From NCBI GenBank assembly GCA_964291265.2, contig OZ219747.1, positions 2,656,001 to 2,720,000 of the forward strand: a stretch of DNA of 64,000 nt, given 5' to 3'. This document shows positions 10,741 to 64,000 of the stretch, one piece after another; the first letter of the stretch is position 1; each line of letters begins with the position of its first letter. Made by a program: the position numbers and the translations under genes. The notes below the pieces were generated by a model. That model did not search any database and was not told the origin of the DNA. It saw nothing but the letters and a program-made list of their open reading frames with translations. Source of the stretch: Alphaproteobacteria bacterium (GTDB lineage: Bacteria; Pseudomonadota; Alphaproteobacteria; SP197).

Positions 10741-12638
10741 CGCATCCAGTCCCTCAAGGCCTCGGGGCGCTCGCAGAAGGCCTGGCTGTGGACCGCGGTC
10801 AGCGCCGACTCCGTCTTCTTCTTCATCGATCCGTCACGCAGCACCCGGGTGGCCATGGTGCTGTTCGCCTCCACCGAAGGCACCGTCTTCCTTGTCTGCG
10901 ATCGCTAAGCGGTCTACAGGAAACTGGAGCGTGAGCTTGATGGCAAGGTGATCCTCTGCCTTTGCTGGGCGCACTCCAGGCGCGATGTGATCGAGGCTGC
11001 GGCAGGCCAAGAGGGGCTGGAAGAGTGGTGCGACAAGTGGCTCGACAGGATCGCGCTGATCTACACACTGAATGGGCAACGGCTGAAGCACTACGATCCC
11101 GCACGCAAGCGTCAGTCAGCGAGGTTCAATGCCCTGCAGAAGGACCTTCGTGCGGCTGTCGAGGCGCTGTTCAGGCAGGCTCAGGAGGAACTCGACGCCT
11201 TGCCCGAGGGTGCACGCGAAGCGAAGCCCTTGCGTTCCCTGATCCGTCACCGCGAGGGACTGTGCGTCTTTGTCGACCATCCCCAGGTGCCCATGGACAA
11301 CAACTTTGCCGAGAGAGCCCTCCGGGGTGCGGTGACCGCGAGAAAGCTGAGCTTCGGCTCCGACAGCGAGGAAGGCGCCGCCTTCACCGCCATCATGTAC
11401 TCGGTCATCGGCACCCTTGCCATGAACAACATCAATGTTCGGCGCTGGCTTCATGAGTGGCTTGAGGCCTGCGCGCAGAACGGCGGCAAGCCGCCGGATG
11501 ACCTCGACCCGTGGCTGCCATGGTCGATGACCCCGGAGCGTCGAAGGGACCTCATGGAACCGGGGTGATCGAGTGCCGTTACGACGGCCGTGACTTCACC
11601 GCGCACGAGATGGCGCTGTTGCGCTCCCTGATCACCCAGCACCCCACCCGTGCGGCCATCGCCCGCGCCTTCTGCCGCGAGACCGGCTGATACAAGCCCG
11701 ACGGGGCCTCAAGAACATGATGGCGAATGTCGCCTTTCTGGCCATGCACCGCGACGGCCTCATCACCCTGCCGCCACCCCAACGACGAGCAACCCGACCC
11801 GGACCCATCGTCTTCGGACCCAACAGCGAACCGCCACGTGGTGCGCCTCCCAAACGCATCCTCAACCGGTGAATATCACCAACAATCACCGCGTGGCCGA
11901 ACGCTTACACCCTGGCGACATCTTCTTCTGGAATGACCCCTACAACAGTTCAGGCGGCATCGGCCACATTCCGGACCTGTGCACGACGTTGCCGATCTTT
12001 TACGGCGAGCGCCTGATCGGATTCAGCCAGGTGTTCGGCCATCACGACGATGTCGGCGGCGCCGTCCCGGGGAGTCTGCCGGCCGATGCCACCGACATGT
12101 GGACCGAGGGACTGGTGGTGCCGCCGATCAAGATCTACGAGAGGGGCAGGATCAACGAGGCGGTGTTCACGATCATCTCGCGCAATTCGCGCCTGTCGGA
12201 ACACCTGCGTGGCGATCTCGATGCTGAAATCGGTGCCGCTCGGCTGGGTAGTCAGCGCGTCGTGGCGATGGCGGAGCGTTATGGCGTGGAGGCTCTTGAA
12301 GCCGCCTATGACGCCATCATCGGGAATTGTGCCGAGACCATACGCCGCGAGTTGCTCCCCAGGATACGGGACGGCGTCTACACATGGGAGGACTACATCG
12401 AGAACGACGGTGTTGAGGGACCCAAGATGCATGCACTGCGTCTGACGATGACCAAGATCACCGACAGGATCATGCTCGACTTTACCGGTACGTCCGAGGA
12501 AGCGAAGGGGCCGATCAACTGGCCCATTGACGGGTGTAGTGTAAGCGTTCGGCCGTTCGGTGATGGCTGATTTTGGTTGGTTTGGGTCTTGCTGACTATC
12601 GTCTGAGAAAGAGCTGGTAAACTCGTTTGGTCTCGATT

Positions 12639-17070
<4,432 letters not shown>

Positions 17071-49129: not shown

Positions 49130-50764
49130 TCAGCTTCGGCAAATGTCGGCATGCGAAGGCTCCAGCGGATCGTGGCCACGTATCGTGTCGGCAAGCTTCT
49201 CGGCCACCATGAGCACCGGGGCATTGAGGTTCGCCGTCACGTTGTGCGGCATGATCGAGGCGTCGACAACGCGCAGCGCGTCGGTGTCGTGCACCCGTCC
49301 CTGGTGGTCCGTCACCGAGTTGTCCCCGGTTCCCATGCGGCATGTCGAGCAGGGGTGGTACTCGGAAGAGCACGCTGCCGCCAGCCAGGCCCTTGTCTCC
49401 GCGTCGCTCCGGACATCTTCGCCGGGCATGAGTTCACCGGCACTCCACGGTTCGAATGCCGGTTGGCGCGCCATCTCGCGGGTTCGTTCCAGGGCCTTCA
49501 CCATCACGTCCGCATCGTGGTCATGCTGGAGATAGTTGAAGACGATGGCCGGCGCCTGGCGCGGGTCGGCAGACCTCAGCCACACCCGGCCGCGGCTCTT
49601 CGGGCGCATGAGTCCCAGGGAGAACATGAAGCCCGGCGCCGCGTTCGCGTCCTCTTCATCGGCAAGACCGCTCATGGCATAGAACTCGTGCTGCATGTCG
49701 CAGTAGAGAGCATCGGCAGAACTGGAGAAGAAGGCTCCGGTTTCACACAGCGTCGACGCTGCGGCGCCGCGCCTCGCCAGCAGCCACGCCAGACCGGTTC
49801 CGGCGCGCCGCCAGCCCCTGAGCCGGTGCGACACCGACAGCGGCCGTCTTTCGCCGTGGACGATCTGGACGATCGGGTGATCCTCGAGACCGTGTCCGAC
49901 GAAGGGTACCTCCGCCACGAGCGGGATAGCGTGTTCGGCGAGGTGAGCCGGATCGCCGATGCCCGAGAGCAGAAGGAGCTGGGGCGAGTTGATGGCGCCG
50001 CCGGCGACGATGACCTCCTGCAGGGCTTCCTGACGGCGTGCCTCCCCCCTGTTCGCGACCACGACGCCGACTGCCCTCCTGCCGTCGAAGACGATGCGAT
50101 GGACCAGGGCCTGGTCCATCAGGGTGAGATTGGGCCGGCTGAGGGCCGGTTTCAGGTAGCCGGACGCCGCACTCCAGCGCCGTCCCCGATGCGTGAAGCT
50201 CTGGGCGACATGAAACCCCTCGTGGTGCGCACCGTTCTGATCGTCCGTGACGCGGTATCCGGCCTGCCGGCCGGCTTCCAGAAAGGCCCGGTCATAGGCA
50301 TGCTCCGCCGCGCACGTCTCGATGAACTGCGGGCCCCGGTCGCCTCGCCAGGCATCTGCGCCGCGATCGAAGGTCTCGCTCTTGCGAAAGTAGGGCAGAC
50401 AACGGGCGAAGGACCAGTCGTCCAGGCCTTCGCTCGCCCACTGGTCATAGTCCCGGGGATTGCCGCGGTTGGCGACCATGCCGTTGATCGACGACGACCC
50501 GCCCAGGACTCGTCCGCGGCGGGCCCGGATCCTGCGGCCATGCAGAAAGGGCTCCGGTTCGCTCACGTACCCCCAGCCAAACCGCGGATCCCGGGCGGCC
50601 ATTGCCGCAGCCGCCGGCATGGAGATGGCAAGCCCCCGGTCGTGGCCTCCCGCCTCGATCAGCAGCACCCGCACACCCGGATCCTCGCTCAGGCGGTTCG
50701 CCAGCACGCACCCGGCGGTCCCCGCACCGATGATGATGATGTCGTGAGGCGCCGAACGTTCCAT
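49130..50764 (-). CDS. GMC-family oxidoreductase (choline dehydrogenase-like)
   Basis: GAGTAGCVLANRLSED, LGGSSSING, GAINSPQLL.LSGIG, YHPCSTCRMG, NLNAP. Confidence 0.92.
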   Translation of the reverse strand: MERSAPHDIIIIGAGTAGCVLANRLSEDPGVRVLLIEAGGHDRGLAISMPAAAAMAARDPRFGWGYVSEPEPFLHGRRIRARRGRVLGGSSSINGMVANRGNPRDYDQWASEGLDDWSFARCLPYFRKSETFDRGADAWRGDRGPQFIETCAAEHAYDRAFLEAGRQAGYRVTDDQNGAHHEGFHVAQSFTHRGRRWSAASGYLKPALSRPNLTLMDQALVHRIVFDGRRAVGVVVANRGEARRQEALQEVIVAGGAINSPQLLLLSGIGDPAHLAEHAIPLVAEVPFVGHGLEDHPIVQIVHGERRPLSVSHRLRGWRRAGTGLAWLLARRGAAASTLCETGAFFSSSADALYCDMQHEFYAMSGLADEEDANAAPGFMFSLGLMRPKSRGRVWLRSADPRQAPAIVFNYLQHDHDADVMVKALERTREMARQPAFEPWSAGELMPGEDVRSDAETRAWLAAACSSEYHPCSTCRMGTGDNSVTDHQGRVHDTDALRVVDASIMPHNVTANLNAPVLMVAEKLADTIRGHDPLEPSHADICRS

Positions 50765-51267
50765 GGTGCGAGTGTTCCCTGACCGCACCACGAACGCAAA
50801 GGAAGAACGCGCATGACCCCGCCATCACGCCCCGACATGCGTTCGATATCGGCAGTCTTCGACACCATTCCCGGGGCCATGACCCGCGTGCAGTTCCTCG
50901 GCGAACGTGATGATCTTGACAACACCCTGACCTGATGATGTCAAAGCGTGGAATCGCTTGACCATGAAGAAGACCGGGGCTGTCGCCATGGCTTGCCGCG
51001 TTTAGCGCAGGCCGGGACCCGTCCCGACCCGGCCATGACAACGAAGGAAAGAACCAGATCCATCACGATCCGATCGAGACAGGCCCGGCGGCGGCAGTCT
51101 TGCCTTCACGAATAACAGTGGGTGCGTGAAAGGTGGCATGGCACTGGATTGCACGGCCCCGATGAGCGACAATCAACCGTCAGGTGAGCGTGTCTTGCAT
51201 CGTGCCCGGCAGCGAAGGAAGCAAGTCTGGCGCAACAGCCAGCAGAACGCTCCCGAGGAGTGATACG

Positions 51268-52011
51268 ATGAAGGATGCGGACGAGTATCGGTTTGTCATC
51301 GACGCCTGCGACCCCGATACCCTGCCGATGTCGGATCTGGCCGAATACATGGCTGATCTGGCACGACTGCTCGGCAGTGAGGAGCAGGTGCATTTTGTGC
51401 GTCTTGAAGCTGGCAGCACCGTGCTCGTGCAGCAGGTCGAACGGCAAGCTGCTCCCGAAGTGAAACGCCGAATACATGAACTTGCCGCGCCCACTGCCCC
51501 GGAGGATGCGATCAGGGCATTTGCGGCACTCAACCGACGCCTGGCCAAGGACGGTGCAACCGGCAGCTTGCTGGAAGGTGTTGACACCGAAATCATCCGT
51601 TTTCCTGGTCGAGAGCACTCGCCAGGATTGACGTTCGGTGCCTTCAATCAGCTGGGTGTTCTCGACGGCGTGCTCATCCGCATCGGCGGACGGGACGACA
51701 CCGTGCCGGTGCATCTGCATGACGGCGAGACAATTCACGTATGCAACGCCACCCGTGACATGGCCAGGGATCTTGCGGCTTACCTTTACGGCCCGGTTCT
51801 GCGGGTGCACGGCGAAGGACGCTGGGAACGTACAGTGGATGGCATCTGGTTGATGAAGCGCTTCAGTATCTCGAAGTTCGGGGAACTCGATGATGCACCC
51901 TTGAGCGAAATCGTGGAGAGGTTGCGCGGTGTTGAAGGCAGCGGTTGGCAGGATATCGATGATCCGCTGGCGGAAGTCCGAAGATTGCGCGGTCTTGACG
52001 AGGTACACTGA
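51268..52011 (+). CDS. Hypothetical protein, partner of the PIN-domain gene
   Basis: AGGAG RBS; stop overlaps next start (TGATG). Confidence 0.75.
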   Translation: MKDADEYRFVIDACDPDTLPMSDLAEYMADLARLLGSEEQVHFVRLEAGSTVLVQQVERQAAPEVKRRIHELAAPTAPEDAIRAFAALNRRLAKDGATGSLLEGVDTEIIRFPGREHSPGLTFGAFNQLGVLDGVLIRIGGRDDTVPVHLHDGETIHVCNATRDMARDLAAYLYGPVLRVHGEGRWERTVDGIWLMKRFSISKFGELDDAPLSEIVERLRGVEGSGWQDIDDPLAEVRRLRGLDEVH

Positions 52012-52481
52012 TGGCAATCTTCGATGCCACGACACTCCTGTACCTCCTCGAACCAGATGCAAGAGCGCCTCTTGATCCCGACACGAACAGCTCAGTGCCG
52101 GGTGCCCGACAACGCATCGAATTCCTGATCAAGACACTTGAAGCTCGACGCGAAACCGTCGTGATTCCGACTCCGGTTCTCAGCGAGGTACTGGTCCACG
52201 CTGGTGCCGCAGGACCCCGTTACCTCGACATACTGGACAGCACCCGTTGTGTCCGTATCGAGCCATTCGAGCGCCGGGCGGCCATCGAGCTTGCGGAGAT
52301 GACCCGCGATGCCATCAAAGACGGCGACCTGCGTGCCGGCACCGCAGCGACGCGGGCAAAGCTCAAGTTCGATCGACAGATCATCGCCATTGCGCGGACC
52401 GTGGGAGAGTCCACCATCTACTCCGATGACACGGATATCGCGAAGCTTGGCGGAATGCTCGGGCTCAGTATCGTACCCTAG
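52011..52481 (+). CDS. PIN-domain protein
   Basis: IFDATTL, PTPVLSE, FDRQIIAIA, YSDD acidic PIN pattern. Confidence 0.8.
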   Translation: MAIFDATTLLYLLEPDARAPLDPDTNSSVPGARQRIEFLIKTLEARRETVVIPTPVLSEVLVHAGAAGPRYLDILDSTRCVRIEPFERRAAIELAEMTRDAIKDGDLRAGTAATRAKLKFDRQIIAIARTVGESTIYSDDTDIAKLGGMLGLSIVP

Positions 52482-52652
52482 TTGCTTGGTGCGGACCATG
52501 AGTCGGCGGAGAAATGAACGTTGGATACCACTGGGCCGATCCCGCATCGCTCGCTCGGGCACGACTTCCACCGATGTGCTTCCCGCATTTGACGGACCGG
52601 TGTAGGTTTATCGGAGCCGACCGAGGGTGGCGACACGGTGCTGGAGTGATCG

Positions 52653-54968
52653 ATGCGAATGACGAATGTAGTGGCCGCCCTGCGGTCGTGGGTGGAACGT
52701 CTCTGGCTCTTCGCGAGCACGACCTTATCGCGTGTCGGCGAAGTCAGCCCGATCAGTTCGCCTCCGGTGTCCGAACCCGTGAACGGGACTGTGGACGCTG
52801 AAATGTTGGACCAGAGCGGGCCGCAGGCGGAAGATTCTCTCACTCAAGCCTCGGGCCAACTTGAGGGACTCAACGGCAATTATACTGAGAACGGGCTGCA
52901 CGACGACAAACAACCACCCATCGACTCGAACACCACTTCCGTCGAATCGAATCTCGATGCCGAAGATCAGCTGTCCCCGGTTTCCACTGAAAACGGGCCT
53001 GACAAGTCGCCCACTGTGGTTTCGCCGACGGGTGACGACAGCGAACAGACTCAGCTTGAGACCATCGACAAACCGGGAGATGGAGGGGCGGACGGCATTT
53101 CAGAGAGCGGCGCGAGTGAAGCAAATTCACAAAAAAAAACCGGGCCACACCGCAGCGGAGGGAAGAGAGGTACGCAGTCCGGCAGGCTGCCATCGGGTCA
53201 GCAGAAATCGCCATCTAACCGCCCCGAATTGGTCTGCCGGAAAAATCCCTCGTCTGCAGGTTGGGAGGTCATCCTGATCACAGACGAGAAAGCGCAACTT
53301 GACACCGTGTTCCTTGATGGTAGGCCCCTGGACTTCTCCGATGGACGATGCCGTATTCCGTCATTGGACGGATGCCTGACCGTTTCCTATCGAGACGGAC
53401 AGGAACATGTCGTACCTCTGTTCGAGAGCGAACCTCTCATCTTCAAGCTACCAAAGTACTGGTCTGGCGAAGGGCGCAGAACCACCGGGATCACCAGCGG
53501 GTACTTCATCGTTTTCGCTCCGAGTATATGGCAACGGACGGGTCACGCGCCAGTTGAAGCCGACGGCTGTGCCGATCCGGAATTCAGGGCGCATTATTTC
53601 CACCGGGACGCTTTCGCATCAGAAGGCGTTGACGGCTTTCGCGAGTCGGAAGCTCCCTTCGCCACCGGCATCGAATTGACCGGCCGGCGCATCTTCGACG
53701 ATTCTAAGGACGGCGAGCTGTTCGTCGGTGACCCACCCGATATGAAATCCCCGCCTGAGCTTGCATGGGCCCGGGTCGGAGAGGAAACCGGGAGTGGCTG
53801 GGGGGAGAACTTCAAACCCCAAGAGCAATCGCTCTCGAAGGTCTTGGGCAGAAGGAGAGGCCGCTTCTTTCTCCGAGTGTACGATTCGGAAGTCAGCATG
53901 CTCGACAGCCTGGCGTTCCGGCATCTGCCCAACTTGCGGCAGATCTGCGTCAATGGAGCTGAATACGCACCGGACACGGTGCTCGTACCGGGCCTGAGGG
54001 GATACCCGCCCATGGATGTGAGCTTTGTCAGCGCGGATAGCTCAACGCTTTCGCCTGTTCTGCCCACCGGGGCTCGCCAAAAGGTGCTGCCCTCGGGCGC
54101 GATTGAGGTTCCACCGCACCCGGACGCGGATCGCATAGAATGCAGGTTCGGATCCGATGCGCGCGGCGTGAACATCGTCGTCGACCTTCCTCGAATCTGG
54201 TGGCGATTGGACGGTCGCACCGATCCTGGTCCATGGCGCGATACTCCGCTTGTCATGACGCGAGAGGAGTTCCGCAAACAAGCTCACTCGGACGCGACGA
54301 TTTCGCTCCTGTCCAAGCGGCAAGTATCTGTCTGCGTGGGATTCGGCGACGAGCTGAACCAGCCTTACCGCCGAACGATCGAAGATGATCGTATTGTTGT
54401 CCCCCTGGATCACTTCGTCGATCACGCGCAGATCGACAGGAGACTGAATGCCGATGCCTGCTTCAACGTTCAGTGGGCACGGGAGATTGTGTCGCTCATC
54501 GTGATTTCGGCCGATCCCATGCCCGAGATTGTTTCGTTCACTGCGGAACCGGCGACAATTTTCGTCGGCGAGGAAACAGTGTTGGAGTGGACGAGCCGGA
54601 ACGCTGGCGACGCCCGCGTCGCCATGATTCCGGACGCAGGTGTGCTCAAAGTTGACGGATCATGCACCGTCCGCCCCGCTGAAACAACCACGTATACGCT
54701 CATCTTGGATGTTCTCGGCGCCGACGAAGTCAGCAGGACCGTTACGGTCGCCGTCGTTTCACCGACTACTTCGGGCAAACAGACGGTCCCTCGCGTCATG
54801 TCTACCGCAAGCGGGTGGAGAACCGGTAAAGGCTTCAGTTTCGGTGAACTCAAGGAAGCCGGGCTGTCGCTCAAGGAAGCAGTGGACCGATCCATTCCAA
54901 TAGACAGGCGCCGGCGGACCTTGCATCGAACCAACGTTGAGACAATCGGAAGGATGCTTGATGCCTGA
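52653..54968 (+). CDS. 771-aa protein: disordered N-terminus, Ig-like domain, C-terminal eL13-like domain
   Basis: PEIVSFTAEP..TTTYTL Ig-like segment; RTGKGFSFGELKEAGL..IPIDRRRRTLH..NVETI. Confidence 0.75.
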   Translation: MRMTNVVAALRSWVERLWLFASTTLSRVGEVSPISSPPVSEPVNGTVDAEMLDQSGPQAEDSLTQASGQLEGLNGNYTENGLHDDKQPPIDSNTTSVESNLDAEDQLSPVSTENGPDKSPTVVSPTGDDSEQTQLETIDKPGDGGADGISESGASEANSQKKTGPHRSGGKRGTQSGRLPSGQQKSPSNRPELVCRKNPSSAGWEVILITDEKAQLDTVFLDGRPLDFSDGRCRIPSLDGCLTVSYRDGQEHVVPLFESEPLIFKLPKYWSGEGRRTTGITSGYFIVFAPSIWQRTGHAPVEADGCADPEFRAHYFHRDAFASEGVDGFRESEAPFATGIELTGRRIFDDSKDGELFVGDPPDMKSPPELAWARVGEETGSGWGENFKPQEQSLSKVLGRRRGRFFLRVYDSEVSMLDSLAFRHLPNLRQICVNGAEYAPDTVLVPGLRGYPPMDVSFVSADSSTLSPVLPTGARQKVLPSGAIEVPPHPDADRIECRFGSDARGVNIVVDLPRIWWRLDGRTDPGPWRDTPLVMTREEFRKQAHSDATISLLSKRQVSVCVGFGDELNQPYRRTIEDDRIVVPLDHFVDHAQIDRRLNADACFNVQWAREIVSLIVISADPMPEIVSFTAEPATIFVGEETVLEWTSRNAGDARVAMIPDAGVLKVDGSCTVRPAETTTYTLILDVLGADEVSRTVTVAVVSPTTSGKQTVPRVMSTASGWRTGKGFSFGELKEAGLSLKEAVDRSIPIDRRRRTLHRTNVETIGRMLDA

Positions 54969-57900
54969 TACCGACATAAGGGGTTGGCCGGAGAGAATTC
55001 GGCAACGCTACGAGAACTACCTGAAGACCTCTTTCTTCTTCAAGGAACCCCACTTGCGAGCGTCTTTCCAGGAAGCGTTGAGCGAAGAGGGAAGCCTCCT
55101 GCAGGGACCCTTTCCGGAACCCCATCGAGGTTTCGAGAAAAGACTTCACGCGCATGCGCTGGCAGGCGAGTGTTTCCCCGACTGTGCCGGAGGTCTCTTG
55201 CCAGCCCTGATTGATCGCCCGCTGTACGCACATCAGGAACGCGCCATCCGCGCCACGTATGTCGAGGACCTCAATGTGGTGGTCGCAACCGGCACCGCCA
55301 GCGGCAAGACCGAGAGCTTTCTCTACCCCATCCTGTTCGAACTGTATCGCCAGCATCTTGCCGGGGAGTTGGAAGAGCCGGGCGTGCGAGCGATGATCCT
55401 GTACCCCATGAATGCGCTAGCGAACGATCAGCGCGAGCGGCTCGGGGCAATCTGCGGCCGCTTGCGTGAAGCGGGATCCGATTTCGAGCCGACGTTCGGA
55501 CAATACATCGGCCAGACGCCGGAAAATGCCGGGGACCGATGGCGAAACGCGGCAGCTCGCGCCGACGACCGGTTATCCGGCGAGCTTGTCTTTCGCAACA
55601 AGATGCGGCAGTCGCCGCCTCACGTGCTGCTGACCAACTACTCCATGCTGGAGTACCTGTTGATACGTCCCGATGACAGCCCCCTGTTCGACGGCGGGAG
55701 AGGCGCACACTGGCGGTTCATCGTGTTGGACGAGGCGCATCAGTATCGTGGCGCGAGAGGCATGGAAATGGGGATGCTGATCCGCCGTCTCAAGCAACGG
55801 TTGCGCGATGGGGGACGGCAACGGCCGTTTCGATGCATCGCCACCAGTGCGACCATTACCTCCAGCCAAGGCGACGAAGATCGGCAGGCCGTAGCCGAGT
55901 TCGCATCGGAATTATTCGGCGAGTCTTTTTCGATACCATCCATCGTGTTTGGGGAGTCGCTCGGTGCCGACGATCACGGGCCTCCCAGGCGCTATCACGC
56001 GTTTCTCCGTGCGCTCGAGGGCGCCTTCCTCGTTCACCGGAATGGTGTCGATGCGGTGGTGCTCAATCGCAGGAACCAGGACGCAGGCGGCGCGGCCACG
56101 CAGCCGCTCGAGATCGCGCTGTGTCGCGAGTGTGGGCAGCATTACTACGTTGGTCGGGAGCACAAGGGGTGTCTGCGAGAAGCCATCCGTGATCCGAGCC
56201 ATCCAGAATTCGGTGTCGAGCATTATCTGCCGGCAGACGATGGAAACGAATGGCTGTGTAGACGCTGCGGCGCCTTGTCAGGCTCCACACCTGGCTGCGG
56301 CTGTGGCGCAGCAGTACGCGTAAGGAAGTGCGACTCCCACGAACACAATCCCGATCAACTGAAGAAGTGCGCCGTCTGCGGCTACCGGCGCGGAGGAGTT
56401 GGCGATCCCGTCCAGGAAATCGTGCATGGATCGGATGGTCCCAACACGGTTATCGCTACTGCGCTGCACGAACTGCTCCAGCAAGATCGGCGCAAGGTTC
56501 TCGCGTTTGCAGATAACCGTCAGGAGGCGGCGTTTTTCGCATGGTATGCCGAGGATTCTTACAAGAAGCTGCGTGACAGGAATTTCATCCTGAGAGCGAT
56601 CCTGTCGGAATCGGTTGCCGAAGAGGGCCTTTCGATCGATGACCTTCGGAGCCGTTTGCTCCGGGAATGGGACGATGCAGGACTCTTCCGCGAAGCCGAT
56701 ACCCGGGAGCAGCGAACCCGTCAGGTGCTGACGTCCATCCTGCGCGAGGCGGTTACGGACGAGAAGAGATTGTCCTTGGCTGGCGTCGGCCTGGTCAAGT
56801 GGTTTGTCGCTCTCCCCCGGGACCTCCGCTTGCCCGACGCCATGCTGCGGGCGCCCTGGAACCTCAGTGAAAACGACGCGCGTCTCCTGATCGGCCACGT
56901 TCTGGATGAGATGCGCCCGCGCCGTGCCATCAGCTTGCCCGAGGGCGCAGGGACGCCCGAATGGAGCGCTGTCTCGCCTTGGCCGCAACAGGCATTCGGC
57001 ACAGCACCACGCGGCAGGCGGCGCCATGTTCTGCAATGGGGCGGCTCGCAATCGGCGATCGTTAGTCATTTCCTTCGCCGGCTCCTGGCAGACAGTGATC
57101 TGACCGATGACAGGAAGCGAACCGTGTCGATTGAACTGATGAAGGAGATTTGGCTCGCCCTGCGGGACAATGCTCGTGACCCCTTACTCCGGTGTGCAAG
57201 CAAAAACGGCACATTCCAGCTTGACTCGCGCTGGCTTCGGATCAAACCGGCCAACCTCGACGAAATTTGGGAGTGCGACATTTGCGCAACGCTCGGAAAC
57301 TATAACATTCGAGGTGTATGCCCGCGTAACCACTGTCCTGGTACGCTCTCCCCGGCTCGTCAAGAACGTCTGGTCGGCAACCACTATCGTATCCTCTATG
57401 AGAGTCCCGCATTGCCCCCCGAACTGCGCGCCGAAGAACACACCGCCCAGATCGATGCCGACGAGGCGCGCCGGAGGCAGGACGAGTTCAAGAATGGCGA
57501 CATTCACCTGCTCAGCTCCTCGACCACGTTTGAGGTTGGCGTCGATCTTGGCGATCTGGAGGCCGTCTTTCTCCGCAATGTTCCCCCGGAATCGTTCAAC
57601 TACGCTCAGCGCGCCGGTCGGGCCGGTCGGCGGGACACACCTGGCCTGGTGCTGACCTACTGCCGCCGCAATCCCCACGACCTCTATCATTACGAGAAAC
57701 CCGTCGGTCGCGTGATCGAAGGTACAATACACCCGCCGCGTCTGCACATGACGAACGAGAAGATCGTTCTGCGCCATATGGTTGCCGTTGCCCTGTCAGA
57801 GTTCTTCAAGCAGGATCCAGACAGGTTCCGGAACGTCGAAACGTTTTTGGGTGGCTGGCATGTGCCTCGTGCAACGAAAGACCTGTTCGGCTTCTGCGAA

Positions 57901-59163
57901 GATAACGGAGAACTGAAGGAAACCATGCGCCGCATCGTTCCGGCGAACATGCATGACCGGGTCGGTCTTGACGATGATGCCTGGGTTTTGAACATAACGG
58001 GCAAGGACAGCCGCCTTGCTCTCGCGGAGGCGGAGGTGAGCGCGGACTTTACCGCGATGGAGACCCTTCGCAGGGAGTATTTCGACAAGGGCAAGGACAG
58101 TTCGATCGGACGTATCCGCAAGCGGATGAAGACCATTGCGGAGGAGAGGGCGCTGAACTTCCTTTCCCGTAAAGCTATCATTCCGAAGTACGGGTTTCCG
58201 GTGGATGTCGTCGAGCTGGATGTCCGGTCAACGGACGAACGGCCAACCGGTGTCGCGCTTCAGCGGGACCTGTCCCAGGCGATCGCCGAGTACGCTCCGG
58301 GTGGTAAGGTGGTTGCCAACAAACTCGAATGGGAGTCCTGCGGCGTCAAGGCGATTGCCGGGAAAGCATGGCCTGTGCGCCATTACCGGTATGACGATGC
58401 CCGCAGTTTCAGGCAATGGAACGAGGGTGACCCCGACGCACCTTCGGACGAACGGAAGTACCTCATTCCCGAGTTCGGTTTCGTAACTCCCCTGTTCAAG
58501 AAGCCTGCTGAGCCGCAGGGGCGCGCACGACGCCTCTACACGACGCGACCGTTCTTTCGCGATTTCGACGCGCAACCCAAGACCAAAACCGTTCTCGGCG
58601 TGAAGGTGACACGGGCTGTTCCCGGGGTCCTGGTCATCCTGTGCGAAGGCCGGAACAGGGCGGGGTTCTACATCTGCCGATCTTGCGGAAGTCACATGAC
58701 GGTGCCTCAGGTCCCCCACAGATCGCCATCTGGCTCCGATTGCAAGAAGAGCACATTGGAACGATTTTCCCTTGGCCATGAACTGGCCACTGACGTCGTG
58801 CGCCTTCAGTTTCCGATGGTCCACGGCGAGTGGGATGCGTATTCGGTCGCTTACGCCGTCCTGCTCGGTGCGGCAGACACGCTCGAAGTGCCGGACACCG
58901 ACCTTAACGTCACCATTGCTGGCGGAGATAGTCCGGGTGAGTCCGCGGTTGTGCTCTACGACAACGTGCCGGGTGGCGCCGGGTTGGTGGCACAGCTGGA
59001 AAACGAACAGATCTTGGGCGAAGTCCTTGGCGCCGCTACGGAACGGGTGCGGGGCAATTGTGGCTGCGACACCAGCTGCTACGGTTGCCTCCGCAGTTAC
59101 CGCAATCAATTTGCACATGCCCAACTCGACCGGACCCGGGCGCTGGATATCCTTACCCGATAG
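54961..59163 (+). CDS. DEAD/DEAH-box helicase with Zn-binding motifs and C-terminal DUF1998
   Basis: TASGKTE, YPMNALANDQ, DEAH, TSAT, QRAGRAGR, YDNVPGGAG, C.C..SCYGCL. Confidence 0.93.
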   Translation: MPDTDIRGWPERIRQRYENYLKTSFFFKEPHLRASFQEALSEEGSLLQGPFPEPHRGFEKRLHAHALAGECFPDCAGGLLPALIDRPLYAHQERAIRATYVEDLNVVVATGTASGKTESFLYPILFELYRQHLAGELEEPGVRAMILYPMNALANDQRERLGAICGRLREAGSDFEPTFGQYIGQTPENAGDRWRNAAARADDRLSGELVFRNKMRQSPPHVLLTNYSMLEYLLIRPDDSPLFDGGRGAHWRFIVLDEAHQYRGARGMEMGMLIRRLKQRLRDGGRQRPFRCIATSATITSSQGDEDRQAVAEFASELFGESFSIPSIVFGESLGADDHGPPRRYHAFLRALEGAFLVHRNGVDAVVLNRRNQDAGGAATQPLEIALCRECGQHYYVGREHKGCLREAIRDPSHPEFGVEHYLPADDGNEWLCRRCGALSGSTPGCGCGAAVRVRKCDSHEHNPDQLKKCAVCGYRRGGVGDPVQEIVHGSDGPNTVIATALHELLQQDRRKVLAFADNRQEAAFFAWYAEDSYKKLRDRNFILRAILSESVAEEGLSIDDLRSRLLREWDDAGLFREADTREQRTRQVLTSILREAVTDEKRLSLAGVGLVKWFVALPRDLRLPDAMLRAPWNLSENDARLLIGHVLDEMRPRRAISLPEGAGTPEWSAVSPWPQQAFGTAPRGRRRHVLQWGGSQSAIVSHFLRRLLADSDLTDDRKRTVSIELMKEIWLALRDNARDPLLRCASKNGTFQLDSRWLRIKPANLDEIWECDICATLGNYNIRGVCPRNHCPGTLSPARQERLVGNHYRILYESPALPPELRAEEHTAQIDADEARRRQDEFKNGDIHLLSSSTTFEVGVDLGDLEAVFLRNVPPESFNYAQRAGRAGRRDTPGLVLTYCRRNPHDLYHYEKPVGRVIEGTIHPPRLHMTNEKIVLRHMVAVALSEFFKQDPDRFRNVETFLGGWHVPRATKDLFGFCEDNGELKETMRRIVPANMHDRVGLDDDAWVLNITGKDSRLALAEAEVSADFTAMETLRREYFDKGKDSSIGRIRKRMKTIAEERALNFLSRKAIIPKYGFPVDVVELDVRSTDERPTGVALQRDLSQAIAEYAPGGKVVANKLEWESCGVKAIAGKAWPVRHYRYDDARSFRQWNEGDPDAPSDERKYLIPEFGFVTPLFKKPAEPQGRARRLYTTRPFFRDFDAQPKTKTVLGVKVTRAVPGVLVILCEGRNRAGFYICRSCGSHMTVPQVPHRSPSGSDCKKSTLERFSLGHELATDVVRLQFPMVHGEWDAYSVAYAVLLGAADTLEVPDTDLNVTIAGGDSPGESAVVLYDNVPGGAGLVAQLENEQILGEVLGAATERVRGNCGCDTSCYGCLRSYRNQFAHAQLDRTRALDILTR

Positions 59164-59520
59164 TGTGAAGGACTCGGCAACGCGTGGGGCGGACCTGACC
59201 CAGTGGAGCACCACGGTGTCGCGGTTCCGCACGAGGCGGACGACGGTTTGGCGTTTCTGAAGGGTGACGGAAGTCACGGTTGGCGGCAGGTCGTTGGCCC
59301 CGCTGGCTGCCGAAGAGACCGGCATGGAGGACATCGGGTTCAGCCCCCTCCGCGCGCCGCTGAGGCTGACAGCGTCGAATGTCGTGCGTGAGTTGAGTCT
59401 GCAGGCACATGACAACGCCTGGTTCAGCCGTCGCACGCTGTCGTTCCTGATGACGCGGGAGCGGACCGGGGAAGGTCTTGATCCGGAGTGATGGCCCGTG
59501 TCAAGGCCTTCGGCTGGGTC

Positions 59521-63025: not shown

Positions 63026-63367
63026 TCAACCCTTCGGGAACGGAATGACGTTGCCTCTGTCGTCTGTCTCGTTGGTGTTGATCGTGATGGTCAGAGGATC
63101 GCCTTCGCCATCGGCGGTCTTCGCACGGATCTCCACCTCGTACACGACCCCGGGCTCCAGGTCGACAAAGGTACACGTCGGCAAGGGCGACTCGAATCCA
63201 GGCCCCCACGGCACCGAGCCCTTCTCGCGTATGCGGATGACATGGGTAACAGACGATTCCCACCGTGCATCGATCGTCCGACCGTCATCGACCGGAAGCG
63301 ATACGTGCCAGGCCTTGCCATCCCACGTGATCTTCGGACTTGCGATGTCGGTCATCGAGGCGTCCAT
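63026..63367 (-). CDS. Small fibronectin type III-like domain protein
   Basis: W...IR.R....W....DLEPG..YEVEIRA....GEG pattern. Confidence 0.65.
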   Translation of the reverse strand: MDASMTDIASPKITWDGKAWHVSLPVDDGRTIDARWESSVTHVIRIREKGSVPWGPGFESPLPTCTFVDLEPGVVYEVEIRAKTADGEGDPLTITINTNETDDRGNVIPFPKG

Positions 63368-64000
63368 TCCTCGATCCGGTACTCGGTTCGCAGGAACTGC
63401 CTGCGAGTCTGGAGTCCTTCAAACACCTCGTCGGCATTCATTCGTTCAAGAGAATCGAGCGTCAGGGATGATCGGGCTTCGGCATAGAAGCGGTCGCTGC
63501 ACCGTTCCACGTAAGCCTCTTGCCACCATGTGCAGATCCGGTCCCTGGCGCCCTCGAGAGCCTCAGCCGATGGAAGGCGCGCACACTTCTCATTCTGATT
63601 GACGTGCCTGTGGGCGGGAAGGAGGTTCCACAGGGCATCGCAAGGCCAGGCCGCCCATGGCATGCAGTGATCGATGTTGAGGCTCCTGCTGTCAAGCCTG
63701 CGGCCCGTCCAGACGCAATGGAGGGTCCCCGATTCGAGAAGATTCCGGGAGATCTCGCGGGCATCGCCGACATCGCGGTCAGGGTCGGACCAACGCATGG
63801 CGTCGGCGGCCTCTTGATGATTGAACTCTTCGCCCTGCCTCGCTGCCCAGTCGGACATCAGCTTGGTCCACTCGGCGACAAGCGCCGGCTCGATCCAGGC
63901 GTCATGGCGCCTGAGCGAGTTCCACAAGTGGACGGGGACGCGAAGGCTGCCGAACTGTGCCAGGTACCCCTGGTCGATGAGAAGTGACCCGGGCGCCGCC
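63352..64000 (-). CDS. C-terminal part of an HNH-endonuclease-domain protein (truncated by window edge)
   Basis: CVWTG, IDHCMPW..WPCDALWNLLPA...N..K HNH motif. Confidence 0.75.
   Translation of the reverse strand, partial: AAPGSLLIDQGYLAQFGSLRVPVHLWNSLRRHDAWIEPALVAEWTKLMSDWAARQGEEFNHQEAADAMRWSDPDRDVGDAREISRNLLESGTLHCVWTGRRLDSRSLNIDHCMPWAAWPCDALWNLLPAHRHVNQNEKCARLPSAEALEGARDRICTWWQEAYVERCSDRFYAEARSSLTLDSLERMNADEVFEGLQTRRQFLRTEYRIEEWTPR

Follow-up and report, generated by a model that had tools for sequence, protein, structure and literature searches.

The window, the 64-kb stretch of DNA analysed here, encodes a bacterial protein that ends in an eL13 (L13e) domain and lies directly ahead of a DruE-like helicase. 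The eL13 tail is under purifying selection, as is the core of the protein, and it is the commonest occupant of a C-terminal slot whose contents relatives swap. This swapping points to an as yet undescribed sensor slot with interchangeable contents in what is probably an anti-phage system; judged from its sequence, the two-gene module likely defends against phage. We refer to the protein with the eL13 tail as the partner.

Organization of the locus

The features of the locus are as follows.

50829..59520, no strand: 8.7-kb variable insert with the partner/helicase pair and an upstream TA-like pair; empty site in congener G404
51184..52481, + strand: co-inserted TA-like pair (275-aa unknown protein and 156-aa PIN-domain protein; PIN 26.3 bits)
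52653..54968, + strand: partner gene (P0001, 771 aa), with N-helix, tether, Ig-like array and eL13 tail
52659..52706, + strand: N-terminal amphipathic helix, residues 3-18 (AF2 model), a predicted membrane anchor
52719..53132, + strand: acidic disordered tether, residues 23-160 (AF2 pLDDT, charge, dN/dS)
53133..53222, + strand: basic GGRR patch, residues 161-190 (conserved P..GGRR motif)
53223..54767, + strand: tandem array of about six β-sandwich (Ig-like) domains, residues 191-705 (AF2, Foldseek, VIA)
54786..54956, + strand: eL13 (L13e) tail, residues 712-768 (Pfam, NCBIfam and PDB matches), covering the conserved core of short archaeal eL13
54961..59163, + strand: helicase gene (P0002, 1400 aa), a DruE-like YprA-family SF2 helicase

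The partner ATG has a GGAG 6 nt upstream, and the helicase ATG at 54961 lies 8 nt before the end of the partner stop codon, so that the overlap reported in the preliminary description amounts to 8 nt. A single contig from the X1 run, which may be the source sample, spans 50500-55314 with 0 differences; the partner gene is therefore no assembly chimera. The pair is also kept in other genomes, with the helicase directly downstream of the partner at 67 of 70 GTDB genome loci and the 8-nt overlap at 35 of the loci in this set. These loci were obtained with an alignment query, P0001 alone having returned none in viral contigs or GTDB. Scanning viral contigs with the Clostridial partner gave no match, nor did tblastn of plasmids with a full-length partner as query. 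No third conserved gene was found near the pair in the 70 loci; the recurring ORF clusters considered for this role were rejected as shadows of the partner and helicase genes.

The pair is patchy and mobile. It is found in 3 of 23 congeners, occupies a different site in G411, and is missing from G404, where window position 50828 is joined to 59521. GC3 within the insert is 0.66-0.70, compared with 0.81-0.83 in two flanking genes, and the GC content of the insert is below that of the genome. The TA-like pair occurs in G412 without the partner/helicase pair and is outside the conserved unit. The 107 nearest neighbours, for which there is no control set, include 7 restriction-modification genes, about 17 more that are defence- or TA-like by judgement and 10 mobile-element genes. 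The insert is not flanked by att-like repeats, those repeats that do occur looking fortuitous, and the 64-kb window has no tRNA gene. The insertion site was also considered as a defence hotspot and rejected, as congeners carry mostly metabolic genes there (judged by eye).

The C-terminal tail is an eL13 domain

The last ~60 aa had been said to resemble eL13, and profile searches bear this out. Pfam Ribosomal_L13e (PF01294) matches the whole partner at 27.8 bits (E 2.8e-6), above its gathering threshold of 24.9, and reaches 33.5 bits with the last 65 aa. Positions 26-71 of the 83-position NCBIfam profile PRK12277 (archaeal L13e) align to the partner with E 3.4e-13, the score staying under the 96-bit cut-off set for the whole protein. 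Among PDB sequences, an archaeal eL13, chain 9e6q_AH, matches best (E 1.8e-6; 1.5e-10 with the family profile), from the Pyrobaculum calidifontis 50S subunit according to the entry title. The motif originally quoted for the tail spans residues 723-765, within the interval 54786-54965 given for it. PF01294 occurs in 1 of 401 phylum-sample genomes, namely that of the window, and in 0 of 14 control genomes, so the match is not due to chance.

The predicted structure agrees with this assignment. An AlphaFold model was made for the tail of a relative, L138, the first row of the alignment that includes the window's tail. Its best 50 Foldseek matches listed are all ribosome chains, several of which recur as eL13 in the PDB sequence matches, and it aligns to 9e6q_AH with TMq 0.54 and rmsd 3.3 over 74 columns. 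In the full AF2 model of the window's partner, the tail has a pLDDT of 52-77 and the same strand-strand-helix-helix-helix order.

The tail forms the final 60 aa of the 771-aa fusion protein and is not a stand-alone ribosomal subunit. Its dN/dS is 0.32, within the range of the Ig domains (0.23-0.39) and below that of the tether (0.66). The net charge averages +12 per 100 aa (69 loci), and the motifs GxGF..E and D.RR are kept in 90% and 98% of eL13 tails, respectively (n = 288). By the record titles of the 70 loci, 60 of which carry the tail, it occurs in bacteria of at least 16 phyla. A tree of tails and stand-alone eL13 proteins (65 columns) contains two supported tail clades and resolves no donor lineage, with 45 of 93 forks open. 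The tail is a clear example of bacteria retaining, under selection, a domain of an archaeal/eukaryote-type ribosomal protein.

Relatives exchange the tail

The eL13 tail is present in 288 of 384 sequences of a query-biased, redundant set. Other occupants of the slot are uS9 (11 sequences), uS5, the RpoA N-domain (the fragment being the assembly domain), NusA-AR2, TrcR and zinc fingers, while sigma70 is fused C-terminally in L130 and L151 and N-terminally in L077. Singletons are common among the tails, and 7 of the 384 sequences have a very short one or none. A FastTree tree of 129 cores, again with many singletons, implies at least 33 changes of tail. The uS9, uS5 and RpoA copies score under the equivalog cut-offs and have therefore diverged from the native proteins; each of the uS5, RpoA and NusA fusions occurs once and lacks genomic context. 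No housekeeping family matched the zinc-finger, helical or wHTH-like tails. For the tails of P0176 and P0216, which bear a resemblance to bS6, a bS6-like reading was set aside: they had no match in Pfam, NCBIfam or the PDB.

The preliminary description regarded the tail as a co-opted RNA-binding domain. Co-option of an eL13 domain stands, but RNA binding does not fit the whole family: NusA-AR2, TrcR and RpoA tails carry net charges of -8.7, -14.7 and -1.2 per 100 aa, respectively, and since several alternative tails are thus acidic or neutral domains of the protein-interaction type, nucleic-acid binding cannot be the rule for the slot as a whole.

The partner combines a predicted membrane tether with an Ig-like array

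The partner is likely membrane-tethered, as predicted from its N-terminal sequence. The N-helix in the window is too weakly hydrophobic for a transmembrane (TM) span (KD 0.78), and its hydrophobic moment of 0.51 is just under the 0.55 cut-off. Among 114 assessable partners from the loci, 59 have an amphipathic and 47 a TM helix, and deep-branching relatives begin with a hydrophobic, TM-like helix. The helix is followed by a region with AF2 pLDDT <50 (residues 18-187), comprising the tether (net charge -16.7 per 100 aa) and most of the GGRR patch (+26.7 per 100 aa). The conserved N-terminal membrane helix and tether had been missed in the preliminary description.

Invariant residues of the partner concentrate in the Ig array. 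Foldseek and VIA match the array to other Ig arrays with Z up to 9.2, mostly over residues 429-704, domains 1-2 being barely covered. The array is homologous to the full-length partners of sister helicases, which have a DruH-like build. HHalign of the core profile against 15 such partners (950-1570 aa) gave 98.7% (E 3e-16, 396 collinear columns), compared with 1.6% for the reversed control. Likewise, the HMM recovered 11 of 22 full-length or fragmentary candidate partners at E<0.01 (Z=1000), with 311 of 313 background ORFs at or below 1.6 bits and the other two being split partners.

Comparison with DruH itself revealed no link to a characterised member. PADLOC found no DruH match for the partner, a weak negative because two DruH-like controls (Clostridial and Ralstonia) were also blank; NCBIfam did not match these two controls either. 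In HHalign, the short core scored 0.07-0.1% against the Clostridial III-B DruH, and an HMM comparison with that family found no match, while the full-length partners scored 9.8% against the Clostridial family and 3.8% against the Ralstonia protein. Atlas structure rows 1 and 3, which we take to be DruH-type clusters (STY4851/ECs_5259 and YjiT), gave a TM of only 0.25-0.28, and an Atlas feature search with L078 and L143 had no usable match. A PDB search with a DruH-like control matched no DruH chain, and fold searches on the partner returned generic Ig arrays.

Published work describes DruH as an N-domain, six Ig domains and a helical C-terminal domain (CTD), with ssDNA bound at the Ig5-CTD interface and the DruE stalk contacted via the CTD. 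The partner has the tandem array of about six Ig-like domains as in this architecture. The globular helical N-terminal domain is absent, a short helix and ~165 disordered residues standing in its place, and the CTD position is taken by eL13 or other domains in this family. Deleting the N-terminal domain of E. coli DruH abolishes defence; the PLD domains of E. coli Druantia III are dispensable. The partner is probably a truncated DruH derivative.

The helicase belongs to a Druantia III-B-like branch

The helicase was initially described as a 1400-aa DEAH protein with Zn and DUF1998 modules, and both its length and its domains hold: it contains DEAD, Helicase_C and MZB/DUF1998 domains, Walker A, DEAH and Zn modules. 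The MZB/DUF1998 match (58849-59091) ends 23 aa before the C terminus, and the protein has no PLD or Vsr extension. PADLOC matches it to DruE1 (3e-145) and DruE3 (2e-136); in the PDB it matches DruE 9tu7 (E 3e-69) and, weakly, YprA/MrfA (E 3e-19). Table S1 of Bell et al. (PMC12458937) gives the helicases on the L019 and L061 contigs as 'Druantia Type III-B-like'; 10 other accessions are not among the Table S1 rows listed. In a FastTree tree of 132 helicases, the short-partner group adjoins the clade with the Clostridium III-B helicase (support of 1.0 for both together).

Because the helicase falls in this named branch, the locus is a variant of a known system rather than wholly new. The earlier proposal of a two-gene, possibly undescribed defence system therefore survives as a conserved and probably defensive unit, and the possibility raised there, that the pair was already classified, is partly borne out through the helicase. 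Literature searches on Druantia, DruH and L13e/DUF1998 found no description of a system combining such a partner, an eL13-type tail and a helicase; 'L13' and 'ribosom(al)' are absent from the main text of the Druantia/YprA papers searched, bar one spurious 'L13'. Other assignments were rejected: DISARM, Dpd and ARMADA, whose operons hold a conserved methyltransferase, BrxHII-like helicase, PLD or dpd genes, as the 70 loci have no conserved neighbour and PADLOC scores for DrmA and DpdJ are much weaker, and Druantia III-A, as the 1400-aa helicase lacks the extension of the ~2100-aa DruE with its two PLD-like domains.

Proposed mechanism and alternatives

We propose, at a little under even confidence, a Druantia III-B-like anti-phage module in which a membrane-tethered DruH derivative grips nucleic acid with its tail and licenses the helicase on phage DNA. 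Through its N-helix and tether, the partner would keep its Ig array and tail anchored to the inner membrane, close to where DNA enters, and the eL13 tail may grip single-stranded or forked nucleic acid. The slot that replaces the helical CTD of DruH would act as an interchangeable trigger module, here with a predicted basic nucleic-acid-binding fold. The DruE-type helicase, which has no nuclease, would unwind phage DNA on entry, licensed by the partner. By analogy with characterised type III systems, the two proteins would form a complex, the helicase would load at ssDNA or fork junctions and unwind 3'-5', and phage circularisation or replication would be blocked. Weighing against this proposal are the low scores against characterised DruH-like families, the lack in this family of the N-terminal domain that E. 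coli DruH needs for defence, the acidic or neutral alternative tails, the modest hydrophobicity and moment of the window's own N-helix, and the mostly metabolic cargo at the insertion site in congeners.

A more far-reaching reading, which we regard as doubtful, is a plug-in sensor immune receptor: a membrane-tethered DruH derivative would repeatedly have captured ribosome and transcription parts (archaeal eL13, uS9, uS5, RNA polymerase alpha, NusA-AR2, TrcR, sigma70), which serve as baits or docking modules that set the helicase trigger. If true, prokaryotes would have an equivalent of the integrated decoys of plant NLRs, and an archaeal ribosomal protein would have been domesticated for immunity across many bacterial phyla.

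The tail could instead be bait, an integrated decoy (guard): phage takeover proteins attacking RNA polymerase, Nus factors or ribosomes would bind or modify the fused copy and thereby trigger the helicase, as in plant NLRs. The diverged housekeeping copies and sigma70 fusions in the slot, the frequent tail changes, the acidic tails, which fit protein binding, and the activation of M. smegmatis Druantia III by a phage minor tail protein all favour this. To our knowledge, however, bacterial ribosomes have no counterpart of eL13, which leaves a bacteriophage without an eL13 target in its host, and PF01294 is found in 0 of the 400 other phylum-sample genomes. As, in addition, the zinc-finger, helical and wHTH-like tails resemble no housekeeping family and the uS5, RpoA and NusA fusions are isolated singletons, we consider bait unlikely. 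Rather improbable, in our view, is a docking role, in which the tail would station the complex at host ribosomes or at RNA polymerase, perhaps within membrane-bound transcription-translation complexes, so that the helicase could survey R-loops or phage transcripts as they are made. Almost every tail that could be identified is a ribosome or transcription-machinery part, among them the RpoA assembly domain and the rRNA-binding folds eL13, uS9 and uS5, but bacterial 50S subunits are not known to have a site for eL13, which argues against docking, as do the divergence of the uS9, uS5 and RpoA copies and the action of characterised DruE proteins on DNA forks.

The tail might also be a passenger at a recombination-prone gene end that tolerates any small fold, or only a helicase contact, with sensing in the Ig array. 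Members with a very short tail or none, singleton tails, the DruH CTD contact with DruE and the invariant residues of the array are consistent with this; it nevertheless seems quite improbable, given that the eL13 tail is constrained like the core with motifs kept across many phyla, that unrelated folds are unlikely to have a common helicase interface and that tails are strongly skewed to gene-expression proteins. We think it very improbable that the pair has no role in defence and instead serves DNA repair or plasmid maintenance, as an MrfA/SftH-type helicase joined to a membrane adaptor. The helicase family and MZB domain are common to MrfA/SftH, to which the weak YprA/MrfA match and the lack of a nuclease domain may be added, but the helicase is far closer to DruE than to MrfA, the pair is patchy, horizontally moved and inserted, and Bell et al. 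place family members in the defence branch (PMC12458937).

Papers from 2026 disagree about what DruH senses and how a III-B DruE without a nuclease becomes active, the candidates being ssDNA binding, an exonuclease, a scaffold and activation through a phage tail protein. A natural series in which a single core carries many different tails allows this question to be addressed directly by swapping them; should the tail determine the phage spectrum, the system would have a modular sensor. The membrane tether, if it works as predicted, would bring spatial control into Druantia.

Comparison with known systems

In plant NLRs with integrated domains and with Shedu-type variable sensor domains, too, the immune core stays constant while an accessory domain derived from host proteins is exchanged repeatedly. 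The likeness is an analogy without homology, and the effector here is a helicase. Archaeal eL13 (PF01294, PRK12277; 9e6q_AH) has sequence motifs and a predicted fold in common with the tail, but it is a stand-alone ribosomal protein with a short form of 60-85 aa, whereas the tail is fused to a bacterial Ig-array protein.

Druantia III-A of E. coli and P. aeruginosa (10.64898/2026.05.13.724758, 10.64898/2026.05.12.722862, 10.64898/2026.05.13.724313, PMC13192584) has helicase homology (DruE structures of the 9tu7 series), the two-gene layout and an Ig-array partner in common with the pair. Its DruH is a soluble protein whose N-domain is essential and whose CTD is helical, and the partner has no sequence match to DruH models. 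The Mycolicibacterium smegmatis DruH-DruE system (MSMEG_1253/1254; PMC13316683) likewise has overlapping genes and a nuclease-less DruE (1667 aa), and physical interaction of its two proteins is required for defence. By description, its 1132-aa DruH is set apart by having no reported membrane anchor or ribosomal domain.

Druantia III-B and III-B-like systems (Bell et al. 2025, PMC12458937) have two overlapping genes with the partner first, a YprA-family helicase with Zn modules and DUF1998, mostly without a nuclease, and an Ig-like array in the partner. The partner of the present family is not described in the text or Table S2 of that study. It is shorter (~650-900 aa compared with ~1070-1130 aa), as is the helicase (~1400 aa in the window's clade and 1550 in deeper clades), and it begins with a TM or amphipathic helix and a tether where those systems have a globular N-domain, and ends in the swappable tail.

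An eL13-like domain at the end of the partner

The unit comprises two reading frames in the window:

52653-54968, plus strand: partner protein (P0001), 771 aa
54961-59163, plus strand: DruE-like helicase (P0002), 1400 aa

As the preliminary description had stated, the gene of the DUF1998 helicase overlaps that of the partner, which contains the helicase ATG 8 nt inside its end. The eL13-like character that it had assigned to the C-terminus of the partner is upheld by family, sequence and fold comparisons. The partner has a single family match, Ribosomal_L13e (PF01294; 27.8 bits, gathering score 24.9), and on the same tail PRK12277 matches with E = 3.4e-13. The top PDB sequence is 9e6q_AH (E = 1.8e-6, or 1.5e-10 using a 97-sequence profile). 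The predicted model of the tail from a relative (L138) aligns with the same chain in Foldseek (TMq 0.54, rmsd 3.3 over 74 columns), and ribosome chains occupy 50 of the 50 rows listed for it. Among 401 genomes sampled from the phylum, PF01294 is present in one, that of the window, and it occurs in 0 of 14 control genomes. A single contig of sequencing run X1, perhaps the window's own source sample, covers 50500-55314 with no differences.

Anatomy of the partner

The AlphaFold model of the partner (pTM 0.47) consists of an N-terminal helix (residues 3-18), disorder up to residue 187, an all-β array (191-705) and the tail. Fold searches matched the partner to Ig arrays, the highest Z being 9.2, chiefly over residues 429-704. 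Charge differs along the chain, with an acidic tether and a strongly basic patch before the array.

Simple hydropathy and moment rules were applied to the N-termini of 126 locus partners, of which 114 were assessable and 12 were not. A hydrophobic, transmembrane-like stretch is present in 47 of the 114, one of them (L021) probably an artefact of a mis-called start, and an amphipathic helix in 59, while 8 fall under both cut-offs. The N-helix of the window's partner, with a moment of 0.51, lies just below the cut-off and is similar to those of its neighbours. In the locus partners, a basic cluster usually follows the transmembrane-like stretch, which, given the positive-inside rule for membrane protein topology, suggests that the partner beyond this helix is cytoplasmic.

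Some relatives vary this plan. In L054:9779-12757 the Ig array is internally duplicated, with a two-domain unit present three times, and P0122 contains almost the whole core twice. A 160-aa miniature form (P0442) joins an amphipathic N-helix through a short disordered linker to an eL13 domain, without the Ig array.

Occupants of the tail slot

The pool of tails (P0001, P0003-P0265 and locus ORFs) is redundant and was found with eL13-bearing queries. The core was recognized in 390 members and its end reached in 384, where eL13 follows in 288, something else in 89, and little or nothing in 7.

Tails other than eL13 with a family match
uS9: cluster of 11; 10 scanned, 10/10 above cut-off, E 1e-12 to 4e-19
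uS5: P0200
RpoA N-domain: P0215
TrcR: L053, P0246
MacB-like domain: P0257
NusA-AR2: P0265, E 2e-7 to PDB

Sigma70 is also fused at the C-terminus of two of the longer, full-length partners (L130, L151), and the partner at L077:3022-7017 combines an N-terminal sigma70 (regions 2-4) with a degenerate eL13 tail. No clear family match was obtained for tandem zinc fingers (18 tails), a domain that we read as wHTH-like (17) or helical domains (9). The uS5, RpoA and NusA fusions are single-member clusters known without genomic context, but their tails score under the respective equivalog cut-offs, more in keeping with diverged copies than with newly formed chimeras.

At least 33 tail changes are required on a tree of 129 cores. 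In 16 sequences, with pooled, non-independent pairs, the eL13 tail (dN/dS 0.32) resembles the Ig domains (0.23-0.39) and differs from the tether (0.66). A search with the tail profile retrieved 67 short proteins, mostly stand-alone eL13; the few taxon-named ones are from Bathyarchaeota and Acidianus, and one from Syntrophomonadaceae looks like a partner fragment. The tails form two starred clades among the stand-alone eL13 sequences and may thus derive from one capture or from two. Separately, P0449 (127 aa) fuses an eL13-like domain to a Rho N-terminal-like domain.

Conservation and mobility of the pair

The partner homology search yielded 247 relatives out of 7990 scored candidates. At E ≤ 1e-30, 1314 clusters came from the profile search, a number that unspecific Ig and eL13 matches inflate. 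The two-gene arrangement is real and conserved, with the helicase directly after the partner in 67 of 70 GTDB loci; of the other three, two have a truncated partner and one meets a contig end. The eL13 tail is found in 60 and the 8-nt overlap in 35 of these loci, around which no recurring third gene was found. By record titles they span 16 phyla, and many of the names are those of sponge-symbiont lineages. Deep members of the family come from other metagenomes.

Within the window's genus, the partner occurs in 3 of 23 genomes. One congener (G404) joins window position 50828 directly to 59521, so 8.7 kb of the window is an insert. In another (G411), a different site holds only the pair (52577-59169, 82% identity). 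Contigs of both sequencing runs (X1, X2) diverge from the window sequence at 59168-59169, which suggests an additional copy with a different flank. GC3 is 0.66-0.70, versus 0.81-0.83 in two flanking genes. The variable site (window 50829-59520; orthologous L184-L190, L193, L194) lies between GMC oxidoreductase and short-chain dehydrogenase genes. In congeners its cargo is different, spans 0-17 kb and is often a cluster of ABC transporter and hydrolase genes; the genes there are mostly metabolic. Our survey of nearest neighbours, confined to the pair's own loci, covered 107 genes at 62 loci, 82 with a Pfam hit. They include 7 restriction-modification genes, about 17 more that by our reading look defence- or toxin-antitoxin (TA)-like, and 10 mobile-element genes.

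Other features at or near copies of the pair are:

51184-52481: TA-like pair on the same insert, a 275-aa unknown protein and a PIN domain
63026-63367, minus strand: small stand-alone fibronectin type III-like protein, 113 aa, E 6.6e-5, below cut-off
63352-63999, minus strand: HNH endonuclease domain protein (HNH_4, 26.6 bits), cut by the window edge
L138:3888-4691 and 11742-12671: apparent methyltransferase gene halves flanking the pair (restriction-modification, identified by eye)

The TA-like pair occurs without the Druantia-like pair in another congener (G412), and run X2 has a 1-nt deletion at 52129 within the PIN gene. In L138 the two-gene unit, with an eL13 tail, sits between the apparent N- and C-terminal halves of a type I methyltransferase gene, an arrangement that by eye looks like insertion into hsdM. 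Several copies are split by insertions or frameshifts (helicase in L003, L060 and L052; partner in L014, L040, L046 and L055), which would fit an accessory system in turnover.

Possible role of the tail

As described in part of the literature on Druantia, DruH has an N-domain, which the E. coli protein requires, six Ig domains and a helical CTD, with ssDNA bound at the Ig5-CTD interface (10.64898/2026.05.12.722862). DruH loads DruE on forks, its CTD touching the DruE stalk (10.64898/2026.05.13.724313), and in M. smegmatis a phage tail protein activates a nuclease-less pair, which blocks circularisation (PMC13316683). The pair described here likely has a defensive role of some kind.

To our knowledge, eL13 has no bacterial counterpart. 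The tail takes the position of the nucleic-acid-binding CTD of DruH, is basic and constrained, and offers a phage no bacterial counterpart to attack, all of which favours a grip on nucleic acid. We therefore consider it close to an even chance that the eL13 tail would hold nucleic acid, that this grip would license the helicase, and that it would be held near the membrane. The tail could instead be a decoy, which accounts better for the RpoA, NusA, TrcR and sigma tails; overall we regard this as unlikely. Docking of the tail on ribosomes or RNA polymerase seems less probable again, a passenger tail slightly less so still, and a role in repair very improbable. Different models may hold for different tails.

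Relation to Druantia

The helicase contains DEAD, Helicase_C and MZB/DUF1998 domains and stops 23 residues past the MZB match, and so has no PLD or Vsr nuclease. Its top defence models are DruE1 (3e-145) and DruE3 (2e-136), with DrmA and DpdJ matching far more weakly; in the PDB it scores best against 9tu7 (2108 aa, 3e-69) and 9wae, and YprA reaches 3e-19. In a FastTree phylogeny of 132 sequences, rooted on ARMADA-like sequences, the group with short partners is sister to a clade containing the Clostridium III-B helicase and the helicases of full-length partners. A III-like branch has been described in which the nuclease is most often absent (Bell et al., PMC12458937), and type III-B as having a compact DruE without PLDs, which are dispensable (10.64898/2026.05.13.724758). 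The preliminary description had proposed a two-gene, possibly undescribed system: the helicase branch is already named, whereas a pair with such a partner was not found described in the literature searched, though supplements of bioRxiv preprints might mention such partners. The helicases of L137-L139, whose short partners have an amphipathic N-helix, are nested among those of full-length partners; the truncated, anchored partner may thus have two origins or have undergone exchange.

In a metagenome scan (best 80 of 574), more distant helicases lie downstream of partners of 950-1570 aa whose N-terminal region is globular. Of 22 full-length or fragmentary candidates of this kind, 11 match a profile built from 76 short cores at E < 0.01 (Z = 1000), with 311 of 313 background ORFs at ≤1.6 bits. 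In HHalign, short-core and full-length profiles match at 98.7% (E = 3e-16, 396 collinear columns; reversed control 1.6%). Beyond these, matches to named DruH proteins are weak, with full-length partners at 9.8% for the Clostridial III-B family and 3.8% for a Ralstonia DruH-like protein, and the short core itself at 0.1-0.3%. PADLOC gave no DruH match for the partner, and both PADLOC and NCBIfam were also blank for the Clostridial and Ralstonia DruH-like controls. Two clusters that we take to be DruH-type are among the top three rows of an Atlas structure search, at low TM (0.25-0.28). Although the N-domain and helical CTD of DruH are absent from the partner, it is, judged from these comparisons, DruH-like in position and Ig build, and it probably descended from a DruH.
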